Part shown: piece after piece, positions 1 to 47,518 of the stretch
Layout of the letters: every line of letters begins with the position of its first letter
Numbering within the stretch: position 1 is the stretch's first letter
Source of the DNA: a virus
Lineage: Duplodnaviria; Heunggongvirae; Uroviricota; Caudoviricetes
IMG/VR virus record: IMGVR_UViG_2534681701_000013
Coordinates: 1-49,536 of that record
DNA: 49,536 nucleotides
Strand: one strand, 5' to 3'
Made by a program: the position numbers and the translations under genes
The notes under the pieces: model-generated
Seen by the model: the letters and a program-made list of their open reading frames with translations, nothing else
Databases searched by the model: none
Told to the model about the DNA's origin: nothing

Positions 1-1164
1 TTACGCCTTCTTTATATCCTCCATAATTCCAGAGTGGGACATATTTGGGACATTATCACCAAAAATGTCGTCTATTTTCCTCGCATGCTCTGTCAAATGA
101 TTAGGCGCAAGGTGAGCATACCTACGAACCATTTCTATGGACTCCCATCCGCCCATTTCCTGAAGCACTGATAATGGGACGCCTGACTGAATCAGCCAGC
201 TTGCCCAGGTGTGTCTGAGGTCATGGAAACGGAAATCTTCAATTCCTGCACGACGACAAGCTGATAGCCATGATGTCTTGCTGTCGATGCGCATCTTCCT
301 GACCGCAGGCGTTGATGTTCCATCTGCTCGCTTAGCCGCCTTGGTATGTACAAACACCCATTTGTGATGCTTGCCTATTTGATCACGCAACACTTTACAG
401 GCGGTATCGTTCAGCGCCACACCAATGGCGCGGTTTGATTTGCTCTCTTCTGGATTCACCCAGGCAACTCGTCGCTGCATGTCGATTTGTTGCCATTCCA
501 GATTTATGATGTTCGACTTTCTCAGACCAGTTGCCAGCGCAAACTTGACGACAGATTTCAGTGGTTCGGGGCACTCATCAATAAGGCGTTTTGCTTCCTC
601 CTTTTCCAGCCATCTGACTCGCTTGTTTCTGACCGCTGGTATCTTGATGACAGGCGCTTTTTCCAGCCACTTCCAGTCGCGTTCTGCAGCACGGAGAATG
701 GCCTTTATCATGGCAAGATGCTTTGCCTTTGTCTGAGTTGATACTGGCTTTGGTTCATAAACAGGCAGTTCTTTACCTTTCCTGATGGCGGCCTGAACTT
801 TCTGTTTCCATATTTCTTTCGTCTTTCTGTTATGCATTCTGCTTACAGCAGAGTAAATCTTTGCCTCCGAGATATCTTTAAGCCTTATACCCTCAAAATG
901 TTCAAGCCAGAACTCAATCCGGCTTTTATCTGAATCGAGAGATTTTTTATCAGCTTTTTCCTCAAGCCATCTTAGGCAGGCCTCTTCAAAAGTGACATCA
1001 GGTAAATCCCCTAGCTTTTCTACTCGCCAGAGTTCTGCTTTTCGCTTGTCGTGCAACTCCTGAGCTTGCCGCTTGTCCTTTGTGCCAAGAGATTCCTTAA
1101 TTCGTTTCCCGCCCGGGAGCGAATACGAGGCATACCATATTTCATTTCTGCGGAAGAGTGACAT
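1..1164 (-). CDS. intD: Phage tyrosine integrase (DLP12 IntD / P22-HK022-type Int)
   Basis: 387-aa ORF; N-terminus [21 protein letters not shown] and C-terminal catalytic box [10 protein letters not shown]...VRRYAHL typical of tyrosine recombinases; recognised from memory as the DLP12-type integrase; its stop codon is the first 3 bases of the window. Confidence 0.93.
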
Positions 1165-1391
1165 TTTCTTTCCTCTGTTATGCCATCACCCGCGCTCACC
1201 TGGACAGTATGCAGCGGAGACTGAAGCGCCGCAATGCAGGCTTGCCGTGTTGTGAGGTAAGGAGATTTTGGCTTGGTTGGATCTTTACGTGTTGCCTGTA
1301 GGCGGCCTGTTCGTATCCAGTTGGTGGCGGTTGGTCTGGATATCTTAAGAAACTGACAGGCCTCATCGAGTGTGAGGCTGTATGATTCCAT
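1020..1391 (-). CDS. xis: Excisionase (Xis), HTH DNA-binding
   Basis: ORF directly upstream of int on the same strand, overlapping the int 5' end; helix-turn-helix-like segment [26 protein letters not shown]; ATG at 1389-1391 preceded by AGAGG; start and true length uncertain. Confidence 0.6.
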
Positions 1392-1641
1392 GGTTACCTC
1401 TGCTTTTTGAACGCATGTCACGTAACTTCTTAATGTGTTCTGCCGTTTCGATCTCTTCTGCTATCCGATCTGCATCAGCTTTATTCACAGGTTCAAAGTC
1501 ATGATTAAAGCGGAACATGCTGGCGATACATGTTCTGCCTTTTCGGATGTAGTGAACTTTGTTGTGGGTAGAACGCAGGATTTTGCAGGGAGTGCCGTGG
1601 TGGTCGACGTACCAGGTGTTAGGAAAAATGATTCTGAACAT
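1363..1641 (-). CDS. Hypothetical early-left protein (position of lambda Ea8.5)
   Basis: 92-aa ORF with ATG and GAGG RBS, co-oriented with the early-left operon; no family recognised. Confidence 0.45.
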   Translation of the reverse strand: MFRIIFPNTWYVDHHGTPCKILRSTHNKVHYIRKGRTCIASMFRFNHDFEPVNKADADRIAEEIETAEHIKKLRDMRSKSRGNHGIIQPHTR

Positions 1642-1688
1642 TTTTACACCTCAGTTGGACGATGTTGAAATTTGCTGCTTTGAGGCCA

Positions 1689-1907
1689 TCACAGTCCCCA
1701 TTGTTTGTTCTTAAGTTCGATCTCCTCCTGGCAACTTGCACAAGTCCGACAACCCTGAACAGCCAGGCGTCTTCGCTCATCTATCGGATCGCCACACTCA
1801 CAACAATGAGTTGCGGATACAGTCTGGTAGTTCAGACGACGCATTTTTATTGCTGTATTGCGCTGTAATTCTTCGATTTCTGATGCCGAATCAATGATGT
1901 CTGCCAT
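1689..1907 (-). CDS. TraR/DksA-family C4 zinc-finger protein (lambda Orf73-like)
   Basis: 72-aa ORF with CxxC...CxxC pattern (CCECGDPIDERRRLAVQGCRTCASC) characteristic of TraR/DksA zinc fingers. Confidence 0.8.
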   Translation of the reverse strand: MADIIDSASEIEELQRNTAIKMRRLNYQTVSATHCCECGDPIDERRRLAVQGCRTCASCQEEIELKNKQWGL

Positions 1908-2005
1908 CTTCCATTAATCCCTGAATTGTTGGTTAATACGCTTGAGGATGAATGCGAACAATAAAAAAGGAGCCTGTAGCTCCCTGATGATTTTGCTTTT
2001 CATGT

Positions 2006-2221
2006 TCACCGTTCCTTAAAGACGCCGTTTAACATGCCGATCGCCAGGCTTAAATGAGTCGGTGTGAATCCCATCAGCGTTACCGTTTCACGGTGCTTCT
2101 TCAGTACGCTACGGCAAATGTCATCGACGTTTTTATCCGGAAACTGCTGTCTGGCTTTTTTGATTTCAGAATTAGCCTGACGGGCAATGCTGCGAAGGGC
2201 GTTTTCCTGCTGAGGTGTCAT
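2006..2221 (-). CDS. Hypothetical early-left protein
   Basis: ORF in track (2006..2317); most plausible start is the internal ATG at 2219-2221 (MTPQQENALRS...) with upstream GGGA. Confidence 0.45.
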   Translation of the reverse strand: MTPQQENALRSIARQANSEIKKARQQFPDKNVDDICRSVLKKHRETVTLMGFTPTHLSLAIGMLNGVFKER

Positions 2222-2297
2222 TGAACAAGTCCCATGTCGGCAAGCATAAGCACACAGAATATGAAGCCCGCTGCCAGAAAAATGCATTCCGTGGCTG

Positions 2298-2489
2298 TCA
2301 TACCGGGTCTCTCTCATCTGCTTCTGCTTTCGCCACCATCATTTCCAGCTTTTGTGAAAGGGATGCGGCTAACGTATGAAATTCTTCGTCTGTTTCTACT
2401 GGTATTGGCACAAACCTGACTCCAATTTGAGCAAGGCTATGTGCCATCTCAATACTCGTTCTTAACTCAACAGGAGATGCTTTGTGCAT
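2298..2489 (-). CDS. Hypothetical early-left protein (lambda orf63 position and size)
   Basis: 63-aa ORF with ATG start, packed between neighbouring early-left ORFs. Confidence 0.5.
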   Translation of the reverse strand: MHKASPVELRTSIEMAHSLAQIGVRFVPIPVETDEEFHTLAASLSQKLEMMVAKAEADERDPV

Positions 2490-2650
2490 ACCGCCTCCCG
2501 TTTATTATTTATCTTCTCAGCCAGCCGCTGTGCTTTCAGTGGATTTCTGATAACAGAAAGGCCGGGAAATACCCAGCCTCGCTTTGTAACGGAGTAGACG
2601 AAAGTGATCGCGCCTACCCGGATATTATCGTGAGGATGCGTCATCGCCAT
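2462..2650 (-). CDS. Hypothetical early-left protein (lambda orf60a position)
   Basis: 62-aa ORF whose start region overlaps the exo stop (2641-2643), as orf60a does in lambda. Confidence 0.45.
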
Positions 2651-3321
2651 TGCTCCCCAAATACAAAACCAATTTCAGCCAGTGCCTCGTCCATTTTTTC
2701 GATGAACTCCGGCACCATCTCGTTAAAACTCGCCATGTACTTTTCATCCCGCTCAACCACGACATAATGCAGTCCTTCACGCTTCATACGCGGGTCATAG
2801 TTGGCAAAGTACCAGGCATCTTTTCGTGTCACCCACATGCTGTACTGCACCTGGGCCATGTAAGCCGATTTTATGGCCTCGAAACCACCGAGCCGGAACT
2901 TCATGAAATCCCGGGAGGTAAACGGGCATTTCAGTTCAAGGCCGTTGCCGTCACTGCATAAACCATCGGGAGAGCAGGCGGTGCGCATACTTTCGTCGCG
3001 ATAGATGATCGGGGATTCAGTAACATTCACGCCGGAAGTGAACTCAAAGAGGGCTCTGGCGTCGTTCTCGTACTGTTTTCCCCAGGCCAGCGCCTTAGCG
3101 TTAACTTCCGGAGCCACACCGGTGCAAACCTCGGCAAGCAGGGTGTGGAAGTAGGACATTTTCATGTCAGGCCATTTCTTTCCGGAGCGGGGTTTTGCTA
3201 TCACATTGTGAACCTCTGAAGCGGTGATGACGCCGAGCCGTAATTTGTGCCACGCATTATCCCCCTGTTCGACAGCTCTCACGTCGATCCCGGTACGCTG
3301 CAGTATAATGTCCGGTGTCAT
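2641..3321 (-). CDS. exo: Lambda-type 5'-3' exonuclease (Red-alpha, YqaJ family)
   Basis: 226-aa translation matches lambda Exo almost throughout ([21 protein letters not shown]...). Confidence 0.95.
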
Positions 3322-4103
3322 GCTGCCACCTTCTGCTCAGTGGCTTTCTGTTTCAGGAATCCAAGAGCTTTCACTGCTTCGGCCTGTGTCAGTTCTGACG
3401 ATGCGCGAATGTCGCGGCGAAATATCTGGGAACAGAGCGGCAATAAGTCGTCATCCCATGTTTTATCCAAGGCGATCAGCAGAGTGTTAATCTCCTGCAT
3501 GGTTTCATCGTTAACCGGAGTGATGTCGCGTTCCGGCTGACGTTCTGTAGTGTATGCGGTATTTTCGACAATGCGCTCGGCTTCATCCTTGTCATAGATA
3601 CCAGCAAATCCGAAGGCGAGACGGGCACACTGAATCATGGCTTTATGCCGTAACATCCGTTTGGGATGCGACTGCCACGGGCCGGTGATTTCTCTGCCTT
3701 CGCGGGTTTTGAATGGTTCGCGTCGGCATTCATCCATCCACTCGGTAACGCAGATCGGATGATTACGGTCCTTGCGGTAAATCCGGCATGTACAGGATTC
3801 ATTGTCCTGCTCAAAGTCCATGCCATCAAACTGCTGGTTTTCATTGATGATGCGGGACCATCCATCAACGCCCACCACCGGAACGATGCCGTTCTGCTTA
3901 TCAGGGAAGGCGTAAATTTCTTTCGTCCACGGATTAAGGCCGTACTGGTTGGCGACGATCAACAATGCGATGAACTGCGCATCGCTGGCATCGCCTTTAA
4001 ATGCTGTCTGGCGAAGAGTGGTGATCAGTTCCTGTGGGTCGACAGAATCCATGCCGACACGTTCAGCCAGCTTCCCTGCCAGCGTTGCGAGTGCTGTACT
4101 CAT
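3318..4103 (-). CDS. bet: Single-strand annealing protein Bet (Red-beta, RecT family)
   Basis: 261-aa translation matches lambda Bet; 4-bp overlap with exo as in lambda. Confidence 0.95.
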
Positions 4104-4108
4104 CCGTT

Positions 4109-4405
4109 TTATACCTCTGAATCAATATCAACCTGATGGTGAGCAATGGTTTCAACCATGTACCGGATGTGTTCTGCCATGCGCTCCTGAAAGTCAACAT
4201 CGTCATCAAACGCACGGGTAATGGCTTTTTTGCTGGCCCCGTGGCGTTGCAAATGATCGATACATAGCGATTCAAACAGGTGCTGGTGCAGGCCTTTTTC
4301 CATGTCGTCTGCCAGTTCTGCCTCTTTCTCTTCACGGGCGATCTGCTGGTAGTGACGCGCCCAGCTCTGAGCCTCAAGACGATCCTGAATGTAATAAGCG
4401 TTCAT
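4109..4405 (-). CDS. gam: RecBCD inhibitor Gam (short form)
   Basis: 98-aa translation [21 protein letters not shown]... matches lambda GamS; AGGAG RBS upstream. Confidence 0.95.
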
Positions 4406-4479
4406 GGCTGAACTCCTGAAATAGCTGTGAAAATATCGCCCGCGAAATGCCGGGCTGATTAGGTAAACAGGAAAGGGGA

Positions 4480-12823: not shown

Positions 12824-12911
12824 ACTGCCCCCCTGAATCTCCAGACAACCAGTATCACTTAAATAAGTGATAGTCTTAATACTAGTTTTTAGACTAGTCA
12901 TTGGAGAACAG

Positions 12912-13277
12912 ATGATTGATGTCTTAGGGCCGGAGAAACGCAGACGGCGTACCACACAGGAAAAGATCGCAATTGTTCAGCAGAGCTTTGAACCGGGGAT
13001 GACGGTCTCCCTCGTTGCCCGGCAACATGGTGTAGCAGCCAGCCAGTTATTTCTCTGGCGTAAGCAATACCAGGAAGGAAGTCTTACTGCTGTCGCCGCC
13101 GGAGAACAGGTTGTTCCTGCCTCTGAACTTGCTGCCGCCATGAAGCAGATTAAAGAACTCCAGCGCCTGCTCGGCAAGAAAACGATGGAAAATGAACTCC
13201 TCAAAGAAGCCGTTGAATATGGACGGGCAAAAAAGTGGATAGCGCACGCGCCCTTATTGCCCGGGGATGGGGAGTAA
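12912..13277 (+). CDS. insC: IS2 OrfA (InsC, HTH transposase subunit)
   Basis: [26 protein letters not shown]... matches IS2 InsC. Confidence 0.9.
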
Positions 13278-14140
13278 GCTTAGTCAGCCGTTGTCTCCGG
13301 GTGTCGCGTGCGCAGTTGCACGTCATTCTCAGACGAACCGATGACTGGATGGATGGCCGCCGCAGTCGTCACACTGATGATACGGATGTGCTTCTCCGTA
13401 TACACCATGTTATCGGAGAGCTGCCCACGTATGGTTATCGTCGGGTATGGGCGCTGCTTCGCAGACAGGCAGAACTTGATGGTATGCCTGCGATCAATGC
13501 CAAACGTGTTTACCGGATCATGCGCCAGAATGCGCTGTTGCTTGAGCGAAAACCTGCTGTACCGCCATCGAAACGGGCACATACAGGCAGAGTGGCCGTG
13601 AAAGAAAGCAATCAGCGATGGTGCTCTGACGGGTTCGAGTTCTGCTGTGATAACGGAGAGAGACTGCGTGTCACGTTCGCGCTGGACTGCTGTGATCGTG
13701 AGGCACTGCACTGGGCGGTCACTACCGGCGGCTTCAACAGTGAAACAGTACAGGACGTCATGCTGGGAGCGGTGGAACGCCGCTTCGGCAACGATCTTCC
13801 GTCGTCTCCAGTGGAGTGGCTGACGGATAATGGTTCATGCTACCGGGCTAATGAAACACGCCAGTTCGCCCGGATGTTGGGACTTGAACCGAAGAACACG
13901 GCGGTGCGGAGTCCGGAGAGTAACGGAATAGCAGAGAGCTTCGTGAAAACGATAAAGCGTGACTACATCAGTATCATGCCCAAACCAGACGGGTTAACGG
14001 CAGCAAAGAACCTTGCAGAGGCGTTCGAGCATTATAACGAATGGCATCCGCATAGTGCGCTGGGTTATCGCTCGCCACGGGAATATCTGCGGCAGCGGGC
14101 TTGTAATGGGTTAAGTGATAACAGATGTCTGGAAATATAG
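13235..14140 (+). CDS. insD: IS2 OrfB (InsD, DDE transposase; expressed as OrfAB by -1 frameshift)
   Basis: 301-aa ORF overlapping insC; translation matches IS2 InsD. Confidence 0.9.
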
Positions 14141-14151
14141 GGGGAAATCCA

Positions 14152-14156
14152 ATTCT
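14152..14156. repeat. IS2 target-site duplication, right copy (ATTCT)
   Basis: Identical to 12816-12820. Confidence 0.85.
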
Positions 14157-14243
14157 AACTCCAGCGGAGCGTTAGTTGGTTATATGCTTAATGCTAATAA
14201 AATCGCAACCGCTGAGATAACACCAGTTTATGAGATAAAGTAG
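14157..14243 (+). pseudogene. ybcL: ybcL 3' fragment displaced by IS2
   Basis: In frame with the 5' part once IS2 and one ATTCT copy are removed: NSSGALVGYMLNANKIATAEITPVYEIK then stop, giving a 183-aa product. Confidence 0.8.
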
Positions 14244-16669: not shown

Positions 16670-16754
16670 AGTCAGAGATAACAATCAACTAATACTGTTT
16701 TGTTGATTTTTGCTTGTAATTGGCGTTCTGGTCTGAGTTTTGTGGAGTAAGTTG

Positions 16755-17138
16755 ATGCGTGATATTCAGATGGTTCTTGAGCGTTGGGGAGCGTGGGCGG
16801 CTAATAATCATGAAGATGTGACCTGGTCGTCCATTGCCGCCGGTTTTAAGGGATTAATTCCTTCAAAAGTAAAATCTCGCCCACAATGTTGTGACGATGA
16901 CGCGATGATCATTTGCGGGTGCATGGCCCGTCTGAAAAAGAACAACAGCGATTTGCATGATTTATTAGTAGATTATTATGTAGTCGGTATGACATTCATG
17001 TCACTGGCAGGTAAGCATTGCTGCTCTGATGGTTATATCGGGAAAAGGTTACAGAAGGCTGAGGGCATAATTGAAGGGATGTTAATGGCATTAGATATCC
17101 GGTTAGAGATGGATATCGTTGTTAATAACTCTAATTAA
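16755..17138 (+). CDS. quuD: Late-gene antiterminator Q (DLP12 QuuD-type)
   Basis: 127 aa from [22 protein letters not shown]...; cysteine-rich centre; last gene before the lysis/late region. Confidence 0.85.
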
Positions 17139-17171
17139 TATGCCAATTGTTTACTAAAAATTATTAAAAAT

Positions 17172-17189
17172 GGGGCGTTGAGACGCCCC
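17172..17189 (-). terminator. Probable rho-independent terminator (minus strand) in the Q-porin intergenic region
   Basis: Stem GGGGCGT / ACGCCCC with TGAG loop; T-rich on the minus strand (ATTTTTAATAATTTTT); three more stem-loops follow at about 17232-17300. Confidence 0.45.
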
Positions 17190-17327
17190 CAAAAATAAAG
17201 GGTAATATATAACAGAAGGTTTATATAGTTAGAAGCAAGGTTGTGCTTCTAAAGGAAGTGGCTTGAGGGAGCCACTTATATGTTGGGGAGGCAAAGCCTC
17301 CCGCAACATATCTTTTTCGTAATCAGA

Positions 17328-18410
17328 TTAGAACTGATACACCAGACCTACAGCGACGATGTCGTCGGTATCAATACCAGCTGTTTTGGTAAACTTACTA
17401 TCGTCAATTAAGTTGATTTTGTAATCAACAAAAGTGGACATGTTTTTATTAAAGTAGTAAGTAGCACCGACATCGACATACTTGACTAAGTCTCGGTCAC
17501 CATGAACACCAAGGTCTTTACCTTTTGACTGAAGGTAAGCAACAGATGGTCGCAGACCGAAGTCAAACTGATATTGTGCTACTGCTTCAAAGTTTTGTGC
17601 TTTGTTTGCAATATGGTTATTACCAAAAACGGTCATATTCTGAGTTTCAGAATATGTGGTAGCCAGATAGATATTGTTCGCATCATATTTCAGGCCTGCA
17701 GCCCATACTTCCGCATTTTTGCCGGAGGCATTGAATTTGCTCTTACCATAGGCGACCTGACCGTCAGTGCGATCTGATTTAGCATAGGTTGCACCCACGC
17801 CGAATCCTTCATACTCATAAGTAGTGGAGAAACCGAAACCATCACCATTGGCTTCAGTTACGTCAGTGCGGTCATTTTTACCCTGATACTGAGCAGCAAA
17901 GTTCAGGCCATCGACCAGACCAAAGAAGTCGTTGTTACGATAGGTTGCAACACCAGTGGTGCGACCAGTCATGAACACATCTGTTTGGGTCCAGGTATCG
18001 CCACCGAATTCTGGCAGAACGTCAGTCCACGCACCGATGTCGTATGCTACACCGTAGTTACGGCCGTAATCGATTGAGCCGTAGTCACCGAATTTCAGGC
18101 CTGCAAATGCAAGACGGGTTTTGTCTTTGGAGGAACCTTGAGATTCAGCGCGGTTGCCTTTGAATTCATATTCCCACTGACCGAAACCAGTCAGTTGATC
18201 GTTGATTTGGGTTTCACCTTTGAAGCCAAGACGGGCATAAGTAGTATCACCATCATCTGCATCGTTAGAGGAAAAGTAGTGCTTGGCATTAACTTTCCCG
18301 TACAGATCCAGCTTGTTACTGTCTTTATTATAAATTTCAGCTGCCTGAGCAGACATCGCCATCAGTACTGATGCAGCTACAGCAGAAATTGCCACTGTTA
18401 ATTTTTTCAT
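17328..18410 (-). CDS. nmpC: Outer-membrane general porin (NmpC / Lc / OmpC-OmpF family), apparently intact
   Basis: 360 aa; signal peptide [23 protein letters not shown], porin-like beta-strand pattern, C-terminal ...VGLVYQF. Confidence 0.9.
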
Positions 18411-18998
18411 CGTGAGCCCTTTTTTTTGAACTATTATTAAAAAATGATGTCACTGCGCGATAAATATTCATCTAATCAATGTGATTATTTCAAGATGTAA
18501 GTTTTAGTTTCTCATTTAATTTGTGAAGTAGATCTCTATTTTTATCTGAACTTTTTCTATCGAAACCTATTTATGGCTCTTATTTGAACAAAAATAAACC
18601 TATTAGCTAATTTATATTAATGGCTGTTATTTATGGGGGTTCTATAATTCGGTGGTTTAATTTAAATCAACTAAAAATAACGCCGGAAATTATTTATTGG
18701 TTATTTGTTGAGGTTTTCTTATATATTTGTGGTGGTGTTTTGAACACTCGGTAGCATTCTCATAAATATCATTCAGTGGTTTACGTACGTAAAAAATTGG
18801 TTATGCTGTTAAGAGTGGTTAGTTCGTCACACAGCTTAAACCCGCCGTCGAGCTGGTTTTTCCATTTTTTGAGTCTCGATATTAGCTGATAACTCAATAC
18901 CTGAGTTATTCACTGACTCCGAGTCTGTTACTTTTCTGCTTTTTTGCGATACGTTGTATTCCCTCAATTTACACCCGCTTTGTCTGCGAGGTGGGGTT

Positions 18999-19214
18999 AT
19001 GAAATCCATGGATAAGTTAACAACGGGTGTCGCCTATGGCACCTCAGCAGGTAGTGCCGGTTACTGGTTTTTACAGCTGCTCGATAAAGTCACGCCCTCA
19101 CAGTGGGCAGCAATAGGTGTGCTGGGTAGCCTGGTATTTGGCCTGCTGACGTACCTGACAAACCTTTATTTCAAGATTAAAGAAGATAAGCGCAAGGCTG
19201 CGAGAGGTGAATAA
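18999..19214 (+). CDS. essD: Holin, phage-21 S-type pinholin (EssD) with dual-start motif
   Basis: 71 aa [28 protein letters not shown]...; Met1-Lys2-Ser3-Met4 dual start; two hydrophobic segments. Confidence 0.9.
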
Positions 19215-19711
19215 TGCCTCCATCATTACGAAAAGCCGTTGCTGCTGCTATTGGTGGCGGAGCAATTGCTATAGCATCAGTGTTAATCACTGGCCCAAGT
19301 GGTAACGATGGTCTGGAAGGTGTCAGCTACATACCATACAAAGATATTGTTGGTGTATGGACTGTATGTCACGGGCATACAGGAAAAGACATCATGCTCG
19401 GTAAAACGTATACCAAAGCAGAATGCAAAGCCCTCCTGAATAAAGACCTTGCCACGGTCGCCAGACAAATTAACCCGTACATAAAAGTTGATATACCGGA
19501 AACAACGCGCGGCGCTCTTTACTCGTTCGTTTACAACGTGGGCGCTGGCAATTTCAGAACATCGACGCTTCTTCGCAAAATAAACCAGGGCGATATCAAA
19601 GGCGCATGTGATCAGCTACGTCGCTGGACATATGCTGGCGGTAAGCAATGGAAAGGTCTCATGACTCGTCGTGAGATTGAGCGTGAAATCTGTTTGTGGG
19701 GTCAGCAATGA
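19214..19711 (+). CDS. rrrD: SAR endolysin (T4-lysozyme-like GH24; phage-21 R / RrrD type)
   Basis: 165 aa; N-terminal weakly hydrophobic Gly/Ala-rich signal-anchor-release segment [20 protein letters not shown] followed by lysozyme-like core; TAATG overlap with holin. Confidence 0.9.
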
Positions 19712-20169
19712 ACAGAGTAACCGCGATTATCTCCGCTCTGGTTATCTGCATCATCGTCTGCCTGTCATGGGCTGTTAATCATTACCGTGATAACGCCATT
19801 ACCTACAAAGCCCAGCGCGACAAAAATGCCAGAGAACTGAAGCTGGCGAACGCGGCAATTACTGACATGCAGATGCGCCAGCGTGATGTTGCTGCACTGG
19901 ATGAAAAATACACGAAGGAGTTAGCTAATGCGAAAGCTGAAAATGATGCTCTGCGTGATGATGTTGCCGCTGGTCGTCGTCGGTTGCACATCAAAGCAGT
20001 CTGTCAGTCAGTGCGTGAAGCCACCACCGCCTCCGGCGTGGATAATGCAGCCTCCCCCCGACTGGCAGACACCGCTGAACGGGATTATTTCACCCTCAGA
20101 GAGAGGCTGATCACTATGCAAAAACAACTGGAAGGAACCCAGAAGTATATTAATGAGCAGTGCAGATAG
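19708..20169 (+). CDS. rzpD: Rz i-spanin
   Basis: 153 aa from [23 protein letters not shown]... (N-terminal TM, coiled-coil rest); ATG at 19708 overlaps endolysin stop. Confidence 0.85.
19928..20110 (+). CDS. rzoD: Rz1 o-spanin lipoprotein, embedded in +1 frame of Rz
   Basis: 60 aa [23 protein letters not shown]... with lipobox VVGC and proline-rich stretch [15 protein letters not shown]. Confidence 0.8.
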
Positions 20170-20541: not shown

Positions 20542-22113
20542 TTACTGAGAGCTCAGATCAACTTTCCAGGGCAACAGATCGCGTACCCGGTTTGCCGGCC
20601 AGTCCTGGATATGTTCAATGACGTAGCGCAGCCACTTTTCTGGCTCCACATTGTTCAGACGGCATGTGCCGATCAGCGAGTACAACACCGCCGCATGTTC
20701 ACCACCGCTGTCGGAACCCGCGAACATCCAGTTTTTCCGGCCTACGGCCACTCCCCGTAAGGCGTTCTCTGCGATGTTGTTGTCGATTTCCACCCAGCCA
20801 TTACTGCAGTACACGTTCAGTGCATCCCACTGTTTCAGCAGGTATGCGAACGCTTTTGCCGTATCTGAGTGACGCGACAGTGTTTTCATCTGTTGCTGTA
20901 TCCAGCCATACAGTGACTGCATCAGTGGCGCGGCTCTGATTTTTCTTGCCGCCAGACGCTGTTCTGCTGAACAGCCCCGGACCTCTGCCTCGATGGCATA
21001 CAGTTCACCGATACGCTGCAGGGCTTCCGTGGTGATGTCGGTGGGCGCTCTTGCATGCACATCGTGGATTTTTCTCCGGGCATGAGCCATACACGCGGCT
21101 TCCGTTATTCTGCCGGATTCGTATAACGCCCGGTAACCACCGTAAGCATCGGCCTGAAGCACACCGCTGTAACCGGCCAGGTGATTTTGTGGATGGATAC
21201 CTTTCCGGTCCGGACTGTACGCGAACCAGACCGCCGCAGGCATCTGTGAACCGGCGTTACGGTCATCACGGACGTAGACCCACAGCCGGGCTGTCCGGGT
21301 TTTACCGCTGCCCGGCTCCTGGACCGGGACGGGGATATCATCAGCATGGACTTTACCGGGCATCAGCACATACTGGCGCAGGACGTCATACAGCGGCTCC
21401 AGCAGTTCAGCAACAGCCCCTGTCCAGCGCCCCAGTGTGGCACGGCTCAGCTCCACTCCCTGACGACGGTATATTTCTGACTGGCGGTATAACGGCAGAT
21501 GGTCTGCATATTTCCCGGTGACAACATGGGCCAGAAGCCCCGCTCCGGCATAACTGCGTGCAATGGGTTTTGAAGGCACCGGTGCCTGCACGATATGGTC
21601 GCACCGGCAACAGGCCTGTTTCGGACGTTGTGTTTCGATAACCTTAAAGGCACTGCTGATAAGCTCCAGTTGCTCTGACACATCACATCCCAGTGGACTG
21701 AGTTCACCACCACAGGCCGGACAGCATTCCTCTTCCGGCCGGATGACCCGGGTTTCACGGGGAAGTGAAGCCGGTAACGGTTTACGGGCTGAAGACTGGC
21801 GCAGGGCGGATGGCAGTACCGGGTCATATTGCTCACCCAGCGTTTCTGCCATTTCTTCCTGAAGTGCGCTGATTCGCTCCTGTGCTTCCTGTATCTGCCG
21901 TTCGGTTTTTGCACGAAGTTTTTCTGAGCTTTTACCGAACTGCATACGTTGCAGTTTCGCAACCAGCGCCTTCAGCCGGTTGATTTCGGAAGCATAAGCC
22001 GCCACCCGCTGTGAGAGCAGGCGGTTGTATTCAGCCATCTGGCGGATGGTGTCCTGTTGCGTCTGCAACAGTGCCCGCAGGCGGGCGTTCTCATGAGCAA
22101 GTGAGGTGTCCAT
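20542..22113 (-). CDS. tnpC: IS66-family transposase TnpC (orf3)
   Basis: 523 aa with N-terminal leucine zipper-like region, CPACGGEL zinc motif and central DDE-like region. Confidence 0.9.
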
Positions 22114-22132
22114 ATCCTCACTTTACAACGGG

Positions 22133-22480
22133 TTATATACGGATGCCAGTGCGTTCCGTTCGTTTCGGGTGCTTCCAGTTGATACCTTCAAGAAGCATGG
22201 ATAACTGAGCCGGAGTAAGGTGAACCTTTCCATCGCGGGTGACCGGCCAGACGAAGCGGCCCCGCTCCAGGCGTTTGGTGAAGAGGCACAGTCCGTCACT
22301 GTCAGCCCACAGCACTTTTATCTGGTCACCCCGGCGTCCGCGGAAGATGAACAGATGCCCGGAGAACGGGTCATCCTTCAGGACGTTCTGAACTTTTGAT
22401 GCCAGGCCGTTAAAACCATTTCGCATGTCGGTGATACCGGCAACCAGCCAGATACGCGAACCGGCAGGGAGAGATATCAT
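22133..22480 (-). CDS. tnpB: IS66-family TnpB (orf2)
   Basis: 115-aa ORF MISLPAGSRIWLVAGITDMRNGFNGL... typical of IS66 orf2. Confidence 0.85.
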   Translation of the reverse strand: MISLPAGSRIWLVAGITDMRNGFNGLASKVQNVLKDDPFSGHLFIFRGRRGDQIKVLWADSDGLCLFTKRLERGRFVWPVTRDGKVHLTPAQLSMLLEGINWKHPKRTERTGIRI

Positions 22481-23127
22481 CAGTGGCTGCTCCCTTTCAT
22501 TTCGCGGATAAGTGACTGTAATAACGCCGGTGTCAGTTCACCTTTCAGCCTGAGAGTTCCGGCCGGCAGAACCAGCTCGCAGCACAGACTGTCGGTCGGT
22601 GTATTTATCTGCTCAACCTGCACGGGGTCCGGGATTTTATTATTCGGCTCCGGCGTTAACGTCACGGGAAGTAGCGATGTTTCATGTTCGCCGGGCGGCT
22701 GCAGGCCGCCGTTACGCCAGAGATGCCGCCAGTTAAAGAGCAGGTTATCGTTGATTCCATTCTCACGAGCTATTTGTGCGACACAGGCACCGGGTAAAAG
22801 AGTTTGCTGAACAAGTCTCCATTTAAACTCCGGTGAAAATCGGTTCCGACGGGGTTTCTCTGCTTTCACAGGCTGAGTCACGGTCGGGGCTGAAGGGTAT
22901 CGCCCCGGGAAAAGAGCCCGGGCCAGTTGCCCGCAGGAATATTTACCGGAAAGAGGCCAGTCAGTGAATACCTGGTGAAATCGCCTCACCAGAGAAAAAA
23001 TGGCGGTTTTGCTGACACCAGTCTGCGCAGAAATGCGCGGGTACGACAGTGACTCGTCAAATCTCAGCTGTAGCACACGCAGGATCAATTCCGGATTATC
23101 TGCCAGTACCGCCTTTCGTGCATTCAT
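22480..23127 (-). CDS. tnpA: IS66-family TnpA (orf1)
   Basis: 215-aa ORF whose stop overlaps the tnpB start; position and size as IS66 orf1. Confidence 0.8.
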   Translation of the reverse strand: MNARKAVLADNPELILRVLQLRFDESLSYPRISAQTGVSKTAIFSLVRRFHQVFTDWPLSGKYSCGQLARALFPGRYPSAPTVTQPVKAEKPRRNRFSPEFKWRLVQQTLLPGACVAQIARENGINDNLLFNWRHLWRNGGLQPPGEHETSLLPVTLTPEPNNKIPDPVQVEQINTPTDSLCCELVLPAGTLRLKGELTPALLQSLIREMKGSSH

Positions 23128-46934: not shown

Positions 46935-47518
46935 TGGCATTCAGAATGAGTGAACAACCACGGGCCATAAAAATTTATAATCTGCTGGCCGGAACTAATG
47001 AATTTATTGGTGAAGGTGATGCATATATTCCGCCTCATACAGGTCTGCCAGCAAACAGTACCGATATTGCACCGCCAGATATTCCGGCTGGCTTCGTGGC
47101 TGTTTTCAACAGTGATGAGTCATCGTGGCATCTCGTTGAAGATCATCGGGGTAAAACGGTTTATGACGTGGCTTCCGGCGACGCGTTATTTATTTCTGAA
47201 CTCGGTCCGTTACCGGAAAATGTTACCTGGTTATCGCCGGAAGGGGAGTTTCAGAAGTGGAACGGCACAGCCTGGGTGAAGGATACGGAAGCAGAAAAAC
47301 TGTTCCGGATCCGGGAGGCGGAAGAAACAAAAAACAACCTGATGCAGGTAGCCAGTGAGCATATTGCGCCGCTTCAGGATGCTGCAGATCTGGAAATTGC
47401 AACGGAGGAAGAAATCTCGTTGCTGGAAGCATGGAAAAAGTATCGGGTATTGCTGAACCGTGTTGATACATCAACTGCACCTGATATTGAGTGGCCTACG
47501 AACCCTGTCAGGGAGTAA
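46934..47518 (+). CDS. tfa: Tail fibre assembly chaperone Tfa
   Basis: 194-aa translation [24 protein letters not shown]... matches lambda Tfa. Confidence 0.95.

Follow-up and report, generated by a model that had tools for sequence, protein, structure and literature searches.

An intact nmpC allele of a DLP12-type prophage located between the antiterminator gene Q and a predicted late promoter that points away from it

In the usual layout of phage lambda, the gene for the late antiterminator Q is followed by the late promoter PR', the terminator tR', cargo genes and the holin gene S. A porin gene that occupies the Q-to-S interval on the opposite strand raises the question of whether Q-dependent late transcription has to read through it in antisense, as was claimed in an initial annotation of the prophage described here, and whether its product is made in the lysogen. 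The DNA concerned is a stretch of 49,536 nucleotides of viral origin (IMG/VR record IMGVR_UViG_2534681701_000013), hereafter called the window. The reading that we hold with high confidence is that the porin gene is intact nmpC cargo, which has its own promoter and is located between Q and PR', with late transcription running away from it. The locus is composed of the following elements.

16755-17138, plus strand: quuD, encoding the late antiterminator Q of 127 amino acids (PF06530); the mechanically called reading frame starts at a TTG at 16740
17171-17317, strand not assigned: four strong tandem hairpins in the spacer between Q and the porin gene (17171-17189, 17229-17252, 17256-17277 and 17278-17311)
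17328-18410, minus strand: nmpC-type general porin gene, intact, 360 amino acids (Pfam, NCBIfam, PDB alignments and identity to the protein of ATCC 8739)
18411-18778, minus strand: AT-rich putative regulatory region of the porin gene, delimited by composition (27-29% GC)
18428-18460, plus strand: position corresponding to the published K-12 essDp, as placed from PMC7918800, with the sigma-E-like element GAACTA (18428-18433), 16 nt, TCACT (18450-18454) and +1 at approximately 18460
18780-18807, plus strand: predicted PR' of this Q family, with -35 TTTACG (18780-18785), a 16-nt spacer and -10 TATGCT (18802-18807); predicted start at A18814
18810-18861, plus strand: predicted initial transcribed region of PR', with TAAGAGTGGTTA, the 'Q-utilization' box and a tR'-like hairpin (18838-18859) with a U-run (18857-18861)
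18999-20169, plus strand: lysis cassette, with the holin gene essD (18999-19214), the lysozyme gene rrrD (19214-19711), rzpD (19708-20169) and, embedded in the latter, rzoD (19928-20110)

Upon re-translation, the porin reading frame has an ATG start and 360 codons and contains neither internal stop codons nor frameshifts, truncations or insertion sequences. The Pfam family Porin_1 (PF00267) covers it fully (profile positions 1-337 of 337, E 1.9e-151), and the best match among solved structures is OmpC (2xe2), whose residues 1-343 align with residues 24-360 of the porin (E 5.8e-137). Full-length alignments were also obtained with the solved OmpC, OmpK36, PhoE and OmpF chains (E 1e-137 to 1e-111). 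That the mature OmpC chains align from residue 24 onward fits with a signal peptide of 23 residues (MKK...SAQA, followed by AEIYNK in the mature part), which ends in AQA and is encoded by 18342-18410. Both the loop-3 constriction motif PEFGGDT and a C-terminal Phe (VYQF) are present. The protein passes the cutoff of the NCBIfam subfamily 'porin OmpC' (521 bits vs. a cutoff of 484), whilst it misses the equivalog cutoffs for PhoE (504 vs. 599) and OmpF (482 vs. 583). Thus, re-translation, the Porin_1 match and the OmpC alignments agree with the initial description of a complete OmpC/OmpF-like porin of the nmpC type, 360 residues long with a signal peptide. By analogy, the product would be exported via this signal peptide and form an OmpC/OmpF-like 16-strand trimeric channel; the formation of trimeric channels by NmpC is known from bilayer work (Hindahl, 1984, as cited in PMC8144880). 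Host OmpC, like OmpF, PhoE and OmpD of Salmonella, belongs to the same fold family, but it is encoded at the ompC locus, whereas the gene in the window is prophage-borne.

The placement of the gene in the Q-to-S interval and on the opposite strand was also correctly recognized. To its left, quuD matches Phage_antitermQ (PF06530, E 9.7e-54) and the Q21 chains in the PDB (6p18 and 6jnx, E 7.6e-8) and is a member of the Q21 family, resembling Q21 and the Q proteins of Stx phages. The protein is 100% identical to Q of phage Kati and 79-82% to Stx-phage Q, and its DNA is 99.2% identical to that of K-12 quuD. To the right, essD encodes a phage-21-type holin (Phage_holin_2_1, PF04971, E 2e-35), followed by rrrD (Phage_lysozyme, E 1.3e-45). 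The gene order in the window is ybcK, ybcL, ybcM, ybcN, ninE, ybcO, rusA, ylcG, quuD, porin (minus strand), essD, rrrD, rzpD/rzoD and bor; the order from ybcM to bor, including that of the lysis genes, is shared with DLP12 of K-12 and with ATCC 8739. Compared with DLP12 of K-12, the prophage in the window is a fuller member of this type, since it keeps the head, tail and early genes, and it has an integrase, recombination genes, an S24 repressor, O, P and a nin region. No Rfam families or tRNAs were detected by Rfam and tRNA scans in the porin region; the sole Rfam match in the whole window is IS009 at 47277-47475 (223.6 bits).

Several other features of the neighborhood were observed. An IS3-family element is located just upstream of ybcM (12830-14240), with an orfA-like frame (12867-13277) and an orfB with rve domains (13235-14140). 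The ybcL frame has 155 codons, as compared to 183 in K-12, and appears truncated. Between bor/iss and the terminase genes, three minus-strand reading frames of 523, 115, and 215 amino acids are found (20542-23127). This segment looks like an insertion of the IS66 family, as a related record shows an 'IS66-like element ISCro1 family transposase' under a 25-kb match, and it has no counterpart at the same position in K-12 or ATCC 8739.

The nmpC gene of the K-12 prophage DLP12 (qsr') is found at the same locus and in the same orientation, with the same neighbors, quuD on the left and essD on the right. The K-12 gene, however, carries an IS5 insertion close to its 3' end and encodes 365 residues when rebuilt without the element, whereas the copy in the window is intact with 360 residues. 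The two proteins are 90.7% identical (84% for the DNA). Residues 1-148 are identical, and the differences, which include deletions of three and two residues, cluster in short variable segments beyond residue 148; by comparison with OmpC, these segments are probably surface loops. At the DNA level, identity to K-12 is 99% for Q, the spacer, and essD but 84% for the porin gene, and, hence, the locus is a mosaic. In windows of 60 nt, the 3' half of the porin gene (17328-17867) was observed to be 67-82% identical to K-12. The pattern of identity implies recombination breakpoints at the 3' end of the gene and inside it.

Other relatives are closer. In E. coli B strains and in ATCC 8739, the module is 99.8-99.9% identical to the window at the DNA level. 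In ATCC 8739 (99.9%, a value shared by many isolates), the porin is the identical protein (WP_000737271.1). In the B-lineage laboratory strains BLR(DE3) and AS19, nmpC is interrupted by IS1, unlike the copy in the window. When 5426 complete E. coli genomes were searched with the 1862-bp interval from Q to essD, 3265 had a match, which spanned 80% or more of the interval in 2466 genomes, and 138 records reached at least 99% identity; many natural isolates encode the identical protein. The module is also present in 36 sequenced phages with 92-97% identity. The free lambdoid phages ev207, 4A7, mEp332, and Turner have the same layout of Q, porin on the minus strand, PR' and holin, but these phages are infectious, whereas the window represents a resident prophage with two IS insertions. 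The gene is named NmpC in the mEp332 record. Its location between Q and the holin gene on the opposite strand, together with its high identity to the reference NmpC, places the porin in the NmpC/Lc group; the lc gene of phage PA-2 is presumably the historical equivalent of such phage-borne porin genes, judging by the title of Blasband (1986), which is cited in PMC11677980. Thus, comparison of the sequences identifies the gene at 17328-18410 as an intact allele of nmpC, the porin gene of the DLP12 prophage family, a locus that is already known, characterized and very common. PGAP names the gene 'porin OmpC', a label that masks its identity as the prophage-borne nmpC.

A partial copy was noticed in E. 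coli O111:H8 strain 08-4455, where positions 4001-4326 of the retrieved stretch are 84% identical to the 5' end of the porin gene and 285 bp upstream of it (window positions 18370-18695). The porin gene itself is absent there. The neighbor of the partial copy is an emrE-ybcL-ybcM remnant adjacent to fliE, and the whole resembles a second DLP12-like module that has decayed. Several similar genomes among the matches listed share this type of remnant.

The intergenic region upstream of the porin gene (18411-18998) measures 588 bp. It had been described as a 590-bp, very AT-rich region with repeated TTTATGG-like elements and as the likely promoter region of the porin gene. The length is right, but only a segment of ~370 bp (18375-18750) is very AT-rich (27-29% GC), and the remaining ~220 bp at the right end, with 38-46% GC, constitute the late promoter and the leader of the lysis operon rather than porin regulatory DNA. 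The motif TTTATGG occurs in two exact copies (18570 and 18630), as compared to 10 copies in the entire window where 6.3 are expected. Neither copy is preserved in K-12, whose allele reads TATTCATGG and TATTTATAAG instead, and therefore they are probably chance occurrences in AT-rich DNA.

That part of this region serves as the gene's own promoter is supported by work on K-12, where PnmpC is active, maps to the 199 bp preceding the ATG and is strong enough to drive the IS5 transposase downstream of it (PMC11677980). In the window, a stock promoter scan of 17139-18998 found no promoter. A relaxed scan yielded a weak candidate for PnmpC on the minus strand (8/12), with -35 TTGAAA (18493-18488), an 18-nt spacer, and -10 GAATAT (18469-18464), which may mark the position of the promoter. 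CRP-like half-matches are found at 18480-18495 (7/10) and 18522-18537 (8/10), with one 8/10 site being a weak signal against an expectation of 0.26. In the divergent cassette of the ETEC strain L3_E36, homology ends at 18496; thus, conservation reaches 86 bp beyond the ATG on the upstream side and takes in the candidate promoter. On the plus strand, a perfect TATAAT is present at 18643-18648, with a weak -35 (ATGGCT) at a spacing of 17 nt; it is kept in K-12 and may be due to chance. Porin transcription would run leftward from a sigma-70 promoter of its own within the first ~100-200 bp of the AT-rich region, and such a promoter would allow for expression of the porin in the lysogen independently of phage development.

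Where late transcription starts was addressed by homology. A 156-bp query (18745-18900) retrieved 358 phage records. In ~300 Stx-converting and related phages, the DNA just after Q or overlapping its end aligns with 18779-18861 (75-95% identity), and in VT2-Sakai the homologous segment is annotated as 'putative late promoter', 'putative Q-utilization', and 'rho-independent terminator'. Near-invariant is the initial transcribed stretch, TAAGAGTGGTTA..CACACAGCTTAAACCCGCC, which is followed by a hairpin and five U residues. For the Sakai prophage Sp5, dRNA-seq gave the start of the PR' transcript and Term-seq its 3' end, with 258 nt between the two (Sy et al., PMC7547250). In the Sakai sequence, this distance of 258 nt is matched exactly by the interval from an A seven bases past the -10 element TATCAT to the last U of the run that follows the second terminator hairpin (646 to 903 of the Sakai stretch). 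This spacing fixes the start of PR' within the conserved block; its counterpart in the window is A18814, with the ATG of essD following 185 nt further on. The segment 18780-18861 thus contains the homologues of all elements of the mapped PR', i.e., the promoter, the initial transcribed region and the hairpin with U-run. Across six DLP12-type copies, the block is 98% conserved vs. 90% for the adjoining AT-rich DNA. The 12-mer TAAGAGTGGTTA is found once in the window and once per related locus; hence, there is no second PR' cassette next to Q. Judged by this homology, the porin cassette lies between Q and PR', upstream of the late promoter.

The use of this promoter by QuuD in the present strain is presumed; the pairing of Q and PR' derives from Stx-phage relatives whose Q proteins are 79-82% identical. 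PMC7918800 cites Rueggeberg (2013) for the control of the DLP12 lysis operon by Q. In phage ev087, no PR' block was found in spite of a related Q, which is identical to that of the window over its first ~76 residues and then divergent in its C-terminal half, i.e., a mosaic (3501-3878 of the retrieved stretch). There, Q is followed by a blc lipocalin gene on the minus strand and a ybgA-like gene.

A second start has been reported for K-12. PMC7918800 describes amplification of the 'regulatory region from -121 to +650', with numbering taken from Rueggeberg (2015). When placed on K-12, the primers given there delimit a product of 771 bp, which puts the +1 of essDp at approximately window position 18460. 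By this placement, essDp would be located ~350 nt upstream of the homology-defined PR', and its start would be 50 nt away from the ATG of the porin gene, with the two promoters arranged back to back. Since both starts, at ~18814 and at ~18460, are to the right of the porin ATG, lysis transcription leads away from the porin gene in either case, rightward into essD-rrrD-rzpD.

The hairpin at 18838-18859 may function as tR', although the homologous hairpin of Sp5 is read through in the 258-nt transcript. Its predicted stability is -5.8 kcal/mol in the window vs. -12.0 kcal/mol in K-12, due to a G-to-T substitution at 18854 (GAGCGGG to GAGCTGG). ATCC 8739 and the phages Turner and ev207 share the variant, while the stronger stem is that of K-12 and mEp332; the substitution could affect the basal expression of the lysis cassette. 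Another substitution, C to G at 18822 (TTAC to TTAG), is located inside the 'Q-utilization' box of VT2-Sakai and is absent from the five other DLP12-type copies aligned. A hairpin after Q in ev087 and in Stx2 II (GCCAGCCTCCCC..GGCTGG-T8) was considered as a tR' next to Q and rejected, as it corresponds to the terminator 258 nt downstream of the start, the PR' of the Stx phages overlapping the end of Q. The -35 and -10 elements annotated in the Stx2 II record were disregarded, since they do not constitute a credible promoter.

The arrangement resembles that of the Stx cargo of 933W/Sp5-type phages, which have a related Q (79-82%), a homologous PR' and cargo between Q and the lysis genes. However, stx is located downstream of PR' and tR', co-oriented with them and Q-dependent, whereas the porin gene is upstream of PR', on the opposite strand and with its own promoter. 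Furthermore, PR' overlaps the end of Q in the Stx phages with a related Q, while a 1.64-kb cassette separates the two in the window. This cassette (17139-18778), between the stop codon of Q and PR', would consist of the hairpin array, the porin gene and the AT-rich regulatory DNA.

The 189-bp spacer between Q and the porin gene has a strong tendency to fold, giving the four tandem hairpins on either strand, with -52.3 kcal/mol on the plus strand and -54.2 kcal/mol on the minus strand (z = -6.7 and -8.2, respectively; none of 200 shuffled sequences was as stable). On the plus strand, the last hairpin, nearest the porin gene, is followed by CUUUUU (17312-17317). The minus strand has AUUUUU after GGGGCGTCTCAACGCCCC (17189-17172), which is the hairpin closest to Q, and this minus-strand site is detected by a terminator scan. 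The spacer is 99.5% identical to that of K-12 and ~80% conserved in ETEC L3_E36. The array presumably terminates transcription from both sides, and the four hairpins, with U-runs in both directions, would probably end the porin mRNA as well as stop ordinary read-through from the Q transcript.

The antisense conflict originally proposed would exist if PR' immediately followed Q as it does in lambda, in which case Q-modified polymerase would have to cross the porin gene on its way to the lysis genes and, during lytic growth, silence it or collide with its transcription. We consider this very improbable and largely refuted. It matches the usual lambda layout, and the spacer does contain -10-like hexamers (TAATAT at 17203-17208 and TATAGT at 17224-17229) and hairpins, as well as a TAACAG motif that aligns with DNA downstream of Q in ev087 and Stx2 II. 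Yet no acceptable -35 element is found in the spacer at a distance of 16-18 nt, the stock scan was negative there, and the look-alikes in ev087 and Stx2 II sit downstream of their own PR' start, in a long PR' leader. The PR' block is single in the window, at 18779-18861, and the DLP12 lysis start derived from PMC7918800 is to the right of the porin gene as well. The porin gene could also be crossed by early transcription. N-type antitermination is processive in lambdoid phages, and the prophage possesses an S24 repressor, O, P, and a nin region, with Q co-oriented with the early genes and convergent with the porin gene. Antiterminated polymerases from the early rightward promoter might therefore pass Q and the hairpins and traverse the porin gene in antisense during lytic growth. 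This seems unlikely, although appreciably less so than a PR' next to Q: four strong hairpins, one of them with a U-run on the plus strand, are in the path, and the early promoter is repressed in the lysogen, so that porin expression in the lysogen would not be affected.

Finally, the gene could be quiescent in this strain as in K-12 and E. coli B, i.e., an intact reading frame without a phenotype. The disruption of the K-12 copy by IS5 and of B-strain copies by IS1 is in agreement with this, as such recurrent inactivation in laboratory lineages suggests that the gene is dispensable or costly, and increased sensitivity to colicins and phages is mentioned for nmpC (PMC11677980). We nevertheless regard quiescence as improbable. 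The copy in the window has no insertion sequence, frameshift or stop codon, the 86 bp that precede the ATG are kept even in the divergent ETEC cassette, and the identical protein is found in many natural isolates (138 records with at least 99% identity). Moreover, in the K-12 strain NCM3722, where nmpC is intact, the gene is strongly expressed and NmpC is a major porin, making up ~2% of the proteome (PMC8144880). Its synthesis is induced by carbon limitation, rather than by high osmolarity as contrasted with the host porins, and it complements OmpC (PMC8144880). The suggestion that an intact copy could alter the outer membrane is, therefore, documented already, and the experiments proposed in the initial annotation have largely been done for the K-12-type allele. 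Expression of the 360-residue allele in the window would follow by analogy with the 365-residue K-12-type allele. In Salmonella, ompD has been regarded as the counterpart of E. coli nmpC (PMC3333887).

The value of this locus as a discovery is small. The gene has been under study since the 1980s and is found in most E. coli genomes, and its expression, its response to carbon limitation and the activity of its promoter have been published. Of more general relevance may be the position of the cassette. A moron of the late operon would be located inside the Q-dependent PR' unit, and the classical moron slot is downstream of tR'; the porin gene is outside this unit, with the PR' block to its right and pointing away from it, and, therefore, no antisense conflict with late transcription is left to be explained. 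In ETEC L3_E36, Q, the porin gene on the minus strand and the PR' block are found in the same order, followed by other late genes (a methyltransferase gene and tRNAs). In SfII and cdtI, minus-strand genes are located directly upstream of the PR' block, their placement being defined relative to this block alone. Tentatively, the interval between the stop codon of Q and PR' may thus constitute a recurrent cargo slot, in which minus-strand genes would be expressed in the lysogen while being insulated from both early and late transcription, and the variant at 18854 may, in addition, raise the basal expression of the lysis genes.
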